Positions 1 to 3,960 of a stretch of DNA of 4,564 nucleotides are shown here, piece after piece. The notes under the pieces were generated by a model that was not told where the DNA came from, did not search any database, and worked only from the letters and a program-made list of their open reading frames with translations. The translations under genes were made by a program, and so were the position numbers. The stretch lies in the IMG/VR virus record IMGVR_UViG_2609459824_000008; one strand, 5' to 3'. This DNA comes from a virus (Duplodnaviria > Heunggongvirae > Uroviricota > Caudoviricetes). Each line of letters starts with the position of its first letter. The stretch's first letter is position 1.

Positions 1-222
1 TTTACCCCGATGGTCTTCAACGAGATGCCACGATGCCTCATCACTGTTGAAAACAGCCACAAAGCCAGCAGGAATATCTGGTGGTGCAATATCGGTACTG
101 TTTGCTGGCAGACCTGTATGAGGCGGAATATATGCGTCACCTTCACCAATAAATTCATTAGTTCCGGCCAGCAGATTATAAATTTTTATGGTCCGTGCTT
201 GTTCACTCATTCTGAATGCCAT
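1..222 (-). CDS. tfa: Tail fibre assembly protein Tfa, N-terminal 74 codons; the 3' end of the gene lies beyond the window start
   Basis: Minus-strand ATG at 222-220. Hand translation of the reverse complement of 1-222 gives [74 protein letters not shown], open to the window edge. This matches the lambda Tfa N-terminus as I remember it almost residue for residue. The start overlaps the stf stop as TAATG. It is absent from the supplied ORF track because it has no in-window stop. Confidence 0.9.
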
Positions 223-3200
223 TATGCAAGCCTCACAATATAGTTAAATGCGATGTTTTTGACGGTGTTTTCCGCGTTACCCGCAGCGTTAACGGTGATG
301 GTGTGTCCATGTGAACCAATCGCAACGGAGTGCGTATGCGCACCAATACCTACAGTATGTGCATGTGCGCCAGAACTTGCTGCAGTACCAGACAGCGAGT
401 GGGTATGAGCACCTGCTGACTGTGTCTGAATACGTTGATAATACGATCTATAGGAAGAAGTCTCCGGGCTTACTTGATACTGTGAATTCTGGACATAAGT
501 GAACCCACCGCCATCATAAAATGCTAACGCAGAACCGCCGCCTCCTGGCCAACGAATACCATTACCATGAGTATGAACACCGGCAGACCCCGTAGAGCCA
601 CTCAGACTGTGCGTATGCGCCCCGGTGTTATTCGTGGATTTAGTGCCGTAATCAAACGACGATGTGGTTTTCGTCCCCAAATCCGTACTGGATGCGCTGG
701 CGCTGTGGGTGTGCGATTTAATGCCGTCCTGTTCCTGAGACAATACGGCCCGGCCACTGGCGGGGTTGCCCTTGATTGTCCAGCCGCGCATATCTGGAAT
801 AACACCTGAAGGATAGGCAATAGCCAGTTTCGGATATGCTGCCTTATCAAACGTCTGCCCCTGCATGATTGCATAACCTGCAGGTGGTGTATCTGATGGC
901 CACGGCAGCGGAACACCTGGCGGAAACGCTTCAATATTTGCCGAGCCGTCAAATTTTACGCCGTTAATTGTCCTTGCAGTTTGCAATTTGGTTGCTGTGC
1001 TTGCATTACCCGATAAAGATCCAGTGATACCACCACTCGCGTTTAATTTAGTTGCAATTGTAACATTGCCAGTATGGTTACTAATTATAAACGGCCTTAA
1101 GCTATTGTGCGTACCAAGACTGTTACCCGAATCTGTCAACATAAAATATGTGTTTGATCCATCATTTCGGATAAAGAATCCATAGTTGCCATAGGCAATA
1201 CGCAGACCATTTGCTGACCTTGAAATAACCTCACCAGCAGCAGTTAAACCACCTGAAAGAGTCCCTCCAGTTAATGCCAATGCCCCAATATTTGAAGGGG
1301 TCAATGTGATATTTGCACTACCATCAAATGACACACCGTTAATCGTTCTGGCTGCCTGAAGTTTCGTGGCGGTCGCAGCATTACCTGTAGTGTTTTGATT
1401 ACCGGTAGCGTTGACTCCAGGCAAGTTGATATCTGCCGATCCATCAAATGCCACGCCCCCAATCTTACGTGCTGTCTTGATCTTGGTCGCAGTATCTGCG
1501 TTTCCGGTCAAATTACCAGTAACACTACCACCAACTTTTAGTCCATTACCGATGGACACCAACCCTGATCTTAAGTTTATAGAGAATGGTCTTAATGAAC
1601 CGATGTCTCCATTTTCCCCCTCCCCTTCATTAGTCGGAATAAGATGAAGATGATCTTCGGAACGCCTAAAAATAAGGCCAAAGGCTTGGTTGAATATTCG
1701 AAGAGCATTTATCGTGCTGATTTTTAACTGCCCTCCCATTGTGTCGCCAGTTTTTTGAACTGAACTATCTTTAACAGTTTTAACTGCCTTTGGCGTTGCC
1801 GCCAGCTTTTCACTGGTGCTGTTTGTTGCACTGCTGAGCTGTACTATCCCCTTTTTCGTCGTGCTCGCATCCTCCAGCGCCACGGCGGATGCAATATCCT
1901 CTGCCCGTTTTGCTGCTGTCTCGGCGCGCGTTGCCGCGGATTCAGCAGCAACTTTGCTCTGAGATGCAGCCGTCGCACTGCCTGCCGCCTCTGATGCTTT
2001 CGTTGTTGCTGTCGTGGCACTACCTTTCGCTGCTGACGCTTGTCTGGTCGCCTCATCTTTTGAAGCAGACGCAGATGATGCCGATGACGCCGCTGAACTG
2101 GCTGACGATGCGGCTGCCGCCTTAGAGGAAGCAGCATTGTCTGCTGAAGTCTTTGCATTTGTTTCAGAGGTTTTTGCTGCAGAAGCAGACCTCGCTGCTG
2201 CAGTGGCTTGCTCAGTGGCTTTGCCAGCCTTCGTTGTGGCTGTTGAAGCGGATGATGCGGCGCTTTCTGCCGATTTTCCGGCGGCGGTGGCACTGGCTGA
2301 GGCCTGCCCGGCACTTGTTGACGCGGCACTGGCAGATAATGCAGCCGCTGTTTTTGAACCTGCCGCAGCTGAGGCGCTCTGTCCCGCTGCTGTTTCAGAA
2401 GACTTAGCGTTCGTCTCGGACGTTTTTGCCGCCTTCGCGGAATTTCCTGCCGCCGTTGCCGAGGAAGCTGCGCTGCTGGCGCTCGAGGCTGCGCTCGTTT
2501 CTGATGATTTTGCCGCCTCTTTTGAAGCTGACGCATCCCGGGCTGAGGTGGCAGCTTCTGACGCTTTCGTGGTCGCGGTGGATGCAGAAGTGGCTGCTGA
2601 TTGTTGTGACGCTGCCGCATTCGTTTCTGACGTTTTCGCCGCAGCGGCACTGGTGGCCGCCGCGCTTTTTGAGGACTCTGCAGCGGCAGCACTTTTTTCC
2701 GCTTCAGTGGCCTTTGTTGATGCCGTTCCTGCGCTGGAAGACGCTGACTGAGCCGACGACGCGGCCTGTCCGGCTGACGTGCTGGCTGCGCGTGCTGAGC
2801 CTGCAGCATCAGTCGCATGGGTTGCCGCCTCACGGGCTGATGTGCCGGCATCGCTGGCTGACTTCTTCGCGGCTGCCGTGTTCTGTGCCACCGCGGACGC
2901 GTTACGCGCCACCTCTTCCACCATCAGTTCAAAACGGCGCAGAGCCTCAGGACGGGCATCATCCTCTGTCATGGCACCGAGAAAATCATTCAGCGTACCG
3001 GGTTGAGAATCTTCATACACGGTAATGGTCCCGGCATGTGATGGCGGGAATCCCTCCACCAACAGACTGACGCTGTACTGACCATACTCGACGTCCATTG
3101 TGTAACGCCCGGCTTCATCCGGGTTTTCTGAGGCCACTGTGTTCACCACCACCGTGGTGCTGTTGCGCCTGGCCTTTAGCTGAATGGTGCAGTTTTGTAT

Positions 3201-3248
3201 CGGCTTACCTGCGCCATCTTTCAGTACACCTGAAATCCGTACTGCCAT
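222..3248 (-). CDS. stf: Side tail fibre protein Stf, intact 1008 aa: lambda-like N-terminal domain, Ala/Ser/Thr-rich shaft, tail-fibre repeat modules, His-x-His C-terminal tip
   Basis: Single uninterrupted ORF in the track. N-terminus [36 protein letters not shown] and C-terminus ...[40 protein letters not shown] match lambda Stf and E. coli prophage StfR-type fibres from memory. Minus-strand ATG at 3248-3246 is preceded by a G-rich Shine-Dalgarno-like run (GGGGGG, plus coordinates 3252-3257). Stop TAA at 224-222. Gene order lom-stf-tfa is as in lambda. Confidence 0.95.
303..713 (-). other. C-terminal tip region of Stf carrying seven His-x-His motifs (predicted metal-binding trimeric needle, as in T4 gp37 and lambda Stf)
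   Basis: HxH pairs at residues 846/848, 878/880, 892/894, 948/950, 962/964, 971/973 and 980/982 (SHTHS, GAHTHS, VHTHG, GAHTHS, AHAHT, AHTHS, SHGHT). On the plus strand these appear as recurring gtg/atg-rich blocks, for example gtgcgtatgcgc at 330-341 and 609-620. Confidence 0.7.
927..1010 (-). repeat. Tail-fibre repeat unit 3 within stf ([28 protein letters not shown], residues 747-774)
   Basis: Same 28-aa motif. DNA 946-1010 (gccgtcaaattttacgccgttaattgtccttgcagtttgcaatttggttgctgtgcttgcattacc) aligns by eye with 1321-1385. Confidence 0.8.
1302..1385 (-). repeat. Tail-fibre repeat unit 2 within stf ([28 protein letters not shown], residues 622-649)
   Basis: Same 28-aa motif. The DNA copy begins exactly 120 nt from unit 1 (1321 vs 1441, both starting ccatcaaatg). 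Confidence 0.8.
1422..1505 (-). repeat. Tail-fibre repeat unit 1 within stf ([28 protein letters not shown], residues 582-609)
   Basis: 28-aa motif G-N-A-x-T-A-T-K-[IL]-x-x-A-R-x-I-x-G-V-x-F-D-G-S-A-x-I present three times in Stf. The plus-strand DNA 1441-1505 (ccatcaaatgccacgcccccaatcttacgtgctgtc...) is visibly similar to 1321-1385. Confidence 0.8.
1869..2891 (-). repeat. Low-complexity Ala/Ser/Thr/Lys-rich shaft-coding region of stf (about residues 120-460) with recurring AAKTSETNA-like motifs
   Basis: The translated Stf is dominated by A, S, T, K, E over about 340 residues. KTSETNA occurs three times (residues ~205-211, ~275-281, ~359-365). The GCN/TCN/ACN codon periodicity explains the long shadow ORFs in other frames and on the plus strand (2014..2751 +, 1844..2851 -). 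Confidence 0.8.
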
Positions 3249-3257
3249 ATTCCCCCC

Positions 3258-3285
3258 ACAAAAAAGCCCGCCTGAACCGGCGGGC
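3258..3285 (-). terminator. Rho-independent terminator between lom and stf (minus strand)
   Basis: Minus-strand sequence GCCCGCC-GGTTCA-GGCGGGC followed by TTTTTTGT. The 7-bp GC-rich stem is at plus 3266-3272 / 3279-3285 with a 6-nt loop; the U-tract corresponds to plus 3258-3265. It lies downstream of the lom stop (3313-3315) and ends about 10 nt before the stf start codon. Confidence 0.65.
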
Positions 3286-3312
3286 TGTCATAACACTGTG
3301 TTACCTGGCTAA

Positions 3313-3912
3313 TCAGAATTTATAACCGACACCAACGATGAAACTGTTGGTACGCCAGTCACCGCTGCCGGAGCCTTCATAAGCAATATCAATGGCCACG
3401 GATTCGGTCGGGTTAAACTGCACGCCAGCTCCCCACGCCAGAGACGTGTTGCTGTGGCGACCGTCATCACTTCCGGTCAGCACGTCGTGCGTTTTCCCCT
3501 TGTTGTCAGTTACGCGGAGATAATCCCCGGAGAAAGTCGACACACGGCTGTAAGCCACACCCGCCATCGCATACGCGCTGAACCATTCATTCACGCGCAC
3601 AGACGGCCCCGCCATCACGCTGAACCAGCGGTTACGAACGGAATCTTCATGCCAGCGGGTATCGCTGTAACGGGTAAGCTGGCGATTCTTGTCTCCTGCA
3701 TAGCTGAATGACGTCACCATCCCCAGTGTGTCCGTAAACTCATAACGGTATTTCACGTTAATCCCGTTCAGATCATCGCTGCCGGGAACGTTCGTCGAGG
3801 CATGAAGATACCCCGCGCTCAGCGTGGACTGATGTTCAGATGCCCATGCAGGCGCACCGGATACGGCCAGACAAATGGCTGCGGACAAAATTGCTGCACA
3901 AACTTTACGCAT
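3313..3912 (-). CDS. lom: Lom outer-membrane beta-barrel protein (Ail/Lom family), 199 aa with N-terminal signal peptide
   Basis: Complete [42 protein letters not shown]...FIVGVGYKF, which matches lambda Lom from memory. It has a signal-peptide-like N-terminus with an AWA-SE cleavage context and a C-terminal aromatic residue (YKF) typical of outer-membrane barrels. Shine-Dalgarno GAGAGG (plus 3918-3923) sits 5 nt upstream of the ATG at 3912-3910; stop TGA at 3315-3313. Confidence 0.93.
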
Positions 3913-3933: not shown

Positions 3934-3960
3934 AATAAAAAAGGCGTCATTCCTGACGCC
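3934..3960 (-). terminator. Rho-independent terminator between J and lom (minus strand), possibly weakly bidirectional
   Basis: Minus-strand sequence GGCGTCA-GGAA-TGACGCC followed by TTTTTTATTG. The stem is at plus 3943-3949 / 3954-3960 with loop 3950-3953; the U-tract is plus 3934-3942. It lies 23 nt downstream of the J stop. On the plus strand the stem is followed by ctttattgg, which is T-rich enough that weak opposite-strand activity is possible. Confidence 0.6.

Follow-up and report, generated by a model that had tools for sequence, protein, structure and literature searches.

The side tail fibre protein Stf, encoded by a lambdoid prophage in a 4,564-nucleotide stretch of DNA (the window), very probably ends in a true homologue of the tip of T4 gp37, that is, in a metal-stacked trimeric needle bearing an exchangeable head. 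This assignment rests on comparison of sequences; we infer the trimer geometry, the binding and identity of the metal, and the receptor of Stf from what is established for T4. The presence of an HxH (His-x-His) needle in the tip of a lambdoid Stf is a correct but already known, ordinary feature, since the relationship of lambda Stf to gp37 and the HxH iron needle have both been published and a Pfam repeat family exists. That lambda-type Stf and gp37 are related has been recognised since the 1980s. The observation carries little weight as a discovery, and its value is practical, for annotation and for engineering. Stf can now be divided into a collar, the ascending strand of the needle, the descending strand and a head cassette at window 408–566 (Table 1), and the combination of an invariant needle scaffold with a freely exchanged head provides information for the design of chimeric fibres and for the prediction of prophage host range.

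The Stf tip and the needle of T4 gp37

Seven HxH motifs lie towards the C-terminus of Stf, and re-translation of the reading frame recovered them exactly where the initial annotation had placed them (window 303–713). All 14 histidines within the last 165 residues of the protein reside in these seven pairs. In 100,000 shuffles of the same 165 residues, the mean number of HxH motifs was 1.1 and the maximum six, so that none reached seven. The earlier count of exactly seven is correct for the C-terminal 165 residues, the stretch to which it referred; Stf as a whole has a further motif, HLH, at residues 533–535 (window 1644–1652), in the shaft and far upstream of the gp37-like tip. T4 gp37 likewise possesses an isolated upstream motif, HYH at residue 742.

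Table 1. Features of the window, with positions given on the whole 4,564-nucleotide stretch
Feature	Window position	Strand	Stf residues	Basis or remark
J, C-terminal part of central tail fibre	3983 to beyond 4564	minus		PHROG families matching the lambdoid J C-terminus
lom	3313–3912	minus		PHROG: Lom
stf, side tail fibre of lambdoid prophage	222–3248	minus	1008 aa	ORF, stop codon 222–224; Pfam; PHROG tail fibre families
tfa, first 74 codons, tail fibre assembly chaperone	1–222	minus		PHROG 105 tail fibre assembly, E = 1e-35
Receptor-binding tip (collar, needle, head)	225–932	minus	773–1008	2XGF homology
Collar domain	774–917	minus	778–825	PF07484 Collar; aligns with T4 D10 collar
Ascending needle strand, HxH 1–3	567–713	minus	HxH at 846, 878, 892	Spacing 32, 14 as in T4 883/915/929
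Head cassette, 53 aa	408–566	minus	895–947	Hypervariable; only region diverging from, and longer than, T4
Descending needle strand, HxH 4–7	303–407	minus	HxH at 948, 962, 971, 980	Spacing 14, 9, 9 as in T4 966/980/989/998
C-terminal 26 residues, back to collar	225–302	minus		Near-identical in T4, lambda and window
HxH 1, SHTHS	705–713	minus	846	ORF translation
HxH 2, AHTHS	609–617	minus	878	ORF translation
HxH 3, VHTHG	567–575	minus	892	ORF translation
HxH 4, AHTHS	399–407	minus	948	ORF translation
HxH 5, AHAHT	357–365	minus	962	ORF translation
HxH 6, AHTHS	330–338	minus	971	ORF translation
HxH 7, SHGHT	303–311	minus	980	ORF translation
12-nt repeat, copy 1	330–341	plus	970–973	Minus-strand codons for AHTH
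12-nt repeat, copy 2	609–620	plus	877–880	Minus-strand codons for AHTH
Shaft motif copy	933–1010		747–772
Shaft motif copy	1308–1385		622–647
Shaft motif copy	1428–1505		582–607

A match to the needle of T4 gp37 had been proposed from these motifs, and alignment to the structure of the T4 tip bears this out. The C-terminal 266 residues of Stf align with chain A of PDB entry 2XGF, the tip of T4 gp37, with an E-value of 9e-81 (query 27–292 against chain residues 2–242); this is the one solved structure which these residues match strongly, and they do so over nearly its full length. The structure, with its HxH iron needle, was reportedly solved by Bartual et al. in 2010. Sequences of T4 gp37 and of the lambda Stf C-terminus were taken from public records and aligned with the tip encoded in the window. 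Residues 785–1026 of gp37 share 64.3% identity with the Stf tip over 241 aligned residues, and the gp37 motifs at 883, 915, 929, 966, 980, 989 and 998 pair one-to-one with the seven of Stf. The distances between consecutive motifs, and from the last motif to the C-terminus, are 32, 14, 37, 14, 9, 9 and 29 residues in T4 and 32, 14, 56, 14, 9, 9 and 29 in Stf. Gaps in the alignment of the HxH-bearing needle are confined to the interval between HxH 3 and HxH 4 and, as the spacing is equal everywhere else, both needle strands have the same register in the two proteins.

Judged by sequence, T4 gp37 has the same collar–needle–head architecture as the Stf tip, and the C-terminal 16 residues of the two proteins are identical. 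The Pfam Collar domain is found ahead of the needle in Stf (PF07484, E = 3.7e-10, 40 bits against a cut-off of 24), and a 14-residue Pfam 'Phage tail fibre repeat' (Phage_fiber) falls on the His motifs at residues 873–886. The head, by contrast, is 19 residues longer in Stf than in T4 (56 versus 37 residues between HxH 3 and HxH 4) and unrelated in sequence, so that the distal end may pack differently from that of T4. A chaperone gene of the gp38/Tfa family lies downstream of both gp37 and stf, and alignment of T4 gp38 with the full-length Tfa encoded in the closest genome shows 30% identity (E = 2e-18). The two fibres differ in their wider setting: T4 is a myovirus, whereas the Stf tip belongs to a siphovirus prophage, where it is joined to the shaft and N-terminal domain of a lambdoid Stf.

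In T4, the tip consists of the D10 collar, a six-stranded needle in which each chain runs out and back, and a small head which contacts the receptor, with seven irons disposed along the needle and coordinated by histidines from three chains (PMC6957217, PMC12609058, PMC11705849). The figure of seven ions, which the initial annotation had given, is the one reported in all three of these papers. The D10 collar includes residues 1010–1026, and the substitution H929A or H931A in gp37 is lethal, with no plaque formation (PMC6957217).

By analogy, three chains of Stf would fold with the aid of Tfa, the counterpart of gp38 encoded downstream. Each chain would proceed from the collar to a small distal head and then return, and the three together would make an intertwined beta needle of six strands. 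Every HxH motif would contribute two imidazoles per chain, and hence six histidines from the three chains would surround one metal ion in each layer. These ions would lie on the three-fold axis, where the corresponding metal in T4 is iron, and seven of them are predicted to stack along the needle and make it rigid. The 53-residue segment between HxH 3 and HxH 4 would then constitute an exchangeable head setting receptor specificity. An AlphaFold2 model of a monomer covering residues 743–1008, built from a 37-sequence alignment, had a mean pLDDT of 42.4 and a pTM of 0.19, the needle being nearly without secondary structure, and was set aside as structural evidence. A poor monomer model would be expected of an obligate intertwined trimer which depends on a chaperone for its folding.

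Lambda Stf and more distant relatives

Stf of phage lambda (Ur-lambda) shares with the window the gene order J–lom–stf–tfa and the phage_tail_N domain at its N-terminus. The tips of the two proteins are 73.6% identical, and the N-terminus of lambda Tfa is almost identical to that of Tfa in the window. The resemblance of lambda Stf to gp37 is established, its tip having been modelled on 2XGF (PMC7291167). That paper cites Montag et al. 1989 for the finding that parts of lambda Stf and Tfa are interchangeable in function with T4 gp37. The HxH motifs are conserved in lambda (PMC11705849), albeit in different number, with eight in lambda Stf compared with seven in the Stf tip of the window. The descending strand of lambda has an extra nine residues, GIGAHQHPV, and its ascending strand an extra ten, SFDYGTKTTG, containing an SFDYGTK unit. 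Such paired extra units are what would be expected if one layer were added to a needle whose chains run in both directions. Lambda Stf differs furthermore in its head cassette and in being shorter (774 residues, PMC7291167, versus 1008 in the window). The tip of phage 9g resembles that of lambda in this respect, with eight HxH motifs and an extra GxGAHxH unit paired with an extra SFDYGTK unit.

The arrangement of collar, HxH needle and head recurs in the fibres of Felixounavirus (Bas63, typing phage 1), 9g, P2-like and Vibrio phages, at a lower identity of 28–57% and with between five and nine HxH motifs. Yersinia phage X1 has five, a P2-like phage six, Citrobacter phage Moon seven, lambda and 9g eight each, and the Felixounavirus fibre and that of Vibrio phage JSF39 nine each. 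The number of motifs follows the length of the tip in these distant relatives, in agreement with the report on Bas63 that it is proportional to needle length (PMC12609058). Since relatives have from five to nine, the number seven belongs to the particular needle length that Stf and T4 have in common, and the fold itself does not dictate it.

The spikes of P2 (gpV) and phi92 (gp138), together with other HxH spikes, also coordinate iron through HxH motifs on the trimer axis. In these the spike is beta-helical and has one site, at its apex, in contrast to a stacked multi-site needle, and it serves to pierce membranes as opposed to binding a receptor; no sequence relationship between these spikes and Stf is detectable.

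The head cassette and alternative explanations

A protein search returned 2588 relatives of Stf at an E-value of 1e-5 or better. The comparison of complete tips comprised 114 sequences, namely the window's own Stf and 113 of the best 120 of these 2588 matches. All 114 have seven HxH motifs with a spacing of 32, 14, X, 14, 9, 9 and 29, where X ranges from 35 to 56 residues, and every His column is invariant in the 37-sequence alignment. The flanks of the third gap in the 114 tips have mean identities to the window of 93% and 97%, whereas the segment between HxH 3 and HxH 4, 35–56 residues long, separates into no fewer than 17 clusters unrelated in sequence. A similar discontinuity is seen at the DNA level in comparison with the phages PhiR26_1 and PhiR29_1, where identity is about 100% over window 1–330, about 40% over 390–570, and 95–100% over 600–750. 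The position of this variable segment between near-identical flanks, together with the collapse of DNA identity there, establishes the head as an exchangeable, hypervariable cassette bounded by HxH 3 and HxH 4 within a conserved needle. In 718 complete E. coli genomes, 80% or more of the tip DNA is matched, and in 348 records the identity reaches 99% or above.

The cassette presumably contacts the receptor. T4 gp37 binds OmpC/LPS, and lambda Stf binds OmpC. The 53-residue head cassette of the present Stf has no counterpart in either T4 or lambda, and it may, as a tentative suggestion for which we claim rather less than even confidence, recognise a receptor other than the OmpC/LPS of T4 and the OmpC of lambda, the invariant seven-HxH needle acting as a universal scaffold for at least 17 unrelated heads. 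Were this the case, the needle of E. coli prophages would represent a natural, ready-made platform for the retargeting of fibres.

The sequences encoding the His motifs are themselves repetitive. The 12-nt exact repeat GTGCGTATGCGC, described in the initial annotation, is present in both copies where it had been located (Table 1), and a third, imperfect copy lies at 399–413, so that a repeat of 12–15 nt is common to three His boxes. The GAHTHS unit in the protein had been described as duplicated; it is indeed repeated, but occurs three times, at residues 876–881, 946–951 and 969–974. The initial annotation ascribed little statistical weight to the 12-nt repeat by itself, and this judgement stands: by our own estimate some 0.6 exact 12-mer repeats would be expected by chance in a window of 4.5 kb, although this specific 12-mer is expected only 0.04 times in shuffled sequence. 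As its two copies encode the same AHTH residues with identical codons in two of the boxes, the repeat is regarded as part of the motif repeat and was rejected as an independent signal.

This repetition allows a different reading, in which the His boxes act at the level of DNA as GxHxH-coding patches of homology for the recombinational swapping of head cassettes, the repeats being kept for the purpose of exchange. In T-even gp37, 'His boxes' were reportedly put forward as sites of recombination by Tetart, Krisch and co-workers; a literature search for 'His box' recombination in gp37 found nothing. Such a role would fit the location of HxH 3 and HxH 4 at the borders of the variable cassette, with the drop in identity from 95–100% to about 40% between roughly 390 and 570, the occurrence of at least 17 unrelated cassettes within near-identical flanks, and the repeat shared by three boxes. 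We nevertheless consider it unlikely to account for the motifs. Exact repeats of 12–15 nt are short for homologous recombination, and the conserved flanks reach well past the boxes, so that breakpoints cannot be pinned to them. Furthermore, the histidines are retained in the protein despite differing codons and neighbouring residues, as in the fibres of Moon, Vibrio JSF39 and Yersinia X1, and T4 fails to form plaques when alanine replaces H929 or H931 (PMC6957217). A contribution of the boxes to recombination is compatible with metal binding and does not exclude it; given that relatives keep the histidines in the protein and that T4 requires them, the two roles do not compete.

If the needle binds metal as proposed, the metal might still differ from that in T4. 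The fold could be T4-like with zinc or nickel in place of iron, or with some of the seven sites empty, as octahedral sites formed by six histidines accept several divalent cations and the sequence does not specify which. We regard this as improbable, because the residues of the sites and their spacing equal those of T4, for which the metal has been assigned as iron (PMC11705849, PMC6957217, PMC12609058), and because the T4 and Stf proteins both assemble in the cytoplasm of E. coli. That the motif count is a by-product, devoid of any specific role, of a low-complexity, repeat-rich fibre has a negligible likelihood, and chance was rejected as its source: the composition of Stf is biased (about 68% Ala, Ser and Thr in residues 101–500) and several internal repeats are present, but none of the 100,000 composition-preserving shuffles reached seven, none of the 14 His columns varies, the spacing does not change across 114 sequences, and the motifs align with the metal-binding residues of a solved structure, 2XGF.

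Gene context and the shaft of Stf

The minus strand carries all genes of the window, and stf lies between lom and tfa, so that PHROG matches and existing annotations together give the lambdoid Stf context J–lom–stf–tfa on a single strand. Residues 1–134 of Stf form the N-terminal domain of prophage tail fibres (PF08400, phage_tail_N, E = 2.4e-71), and two stretches resemble the Pfam family Gp34_trimer, the better at residues 620–722. Considered as a whole, the window matches E. coli prophages, with 422 complete genomes covering at least 80% of it at a best identity of 97%, and also 257 phage records headed by lambdoid phages, in which the gene is named side tail fibre Stf. Homologues of stf in E. 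coli genomes and phages are annotated as prophage tail fibre or side tail fibre. The domains, gene families and prophage and phage matches of the window thus place the HxH motifs in the tip of a lambdoid Stf, and every feature of a lambdoid Stf and of a gp37-type tip which sequence allows to be checked was found.

The stop codon of stf and the start codon of tfa overlap as TAATG on the minus strand (window 220–224), an arrangement that would fit coupled translation of the fibre and its chaperone. GC-rich, terminator-like hairpins with runs of T are present at 3265–3286 (minus strand), just 3' of lom and ahead of stf, and at 3943–3960, within the intergenic gap between J and lom. Their positions suggest that lom forms a unit of its own within the tail-fibre block, with separate termination.

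Within the shaft, a 26-residue motif, GNAxTATK(L/I)xxAR(T/K)IxGVxFDGSA(N/D)I, occurs three times and overlaps the Gp34_trimer matches. Ahead of the collar (window beyond about 780) the shaft diverges from PhiR26_1 and PhiR29_1, which argues that Stf is mosaic in the shaft as well. A low-complexity stretch rich in Ala, Ser and Thr extends over window 1866–2888, corresponding approximately to residues 121–461 of Stf; the composition of residues 101–500 is 35% Ala, 21.5% Ser and about 12% Thr. This stretch is probably responsible for the 10% or so of the window left uncovered in megablast matches. It also yields long open reading frames in other frames and on the other strand, at 1844–2851 (minus, 335 aa) and 2014–2751 (plus, 245 aa), which are taken to be spurious.

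The closest complete genome is that of E. coli SCU-313. In this strain (locus L009, positions 5479–7545) the neighbouring gpJ is annotated as frameshifted, and a second tail fibre assembly gene, a truncated pseudogene, is located nearby, so that the prophage copy in SCU-313 may be defective.
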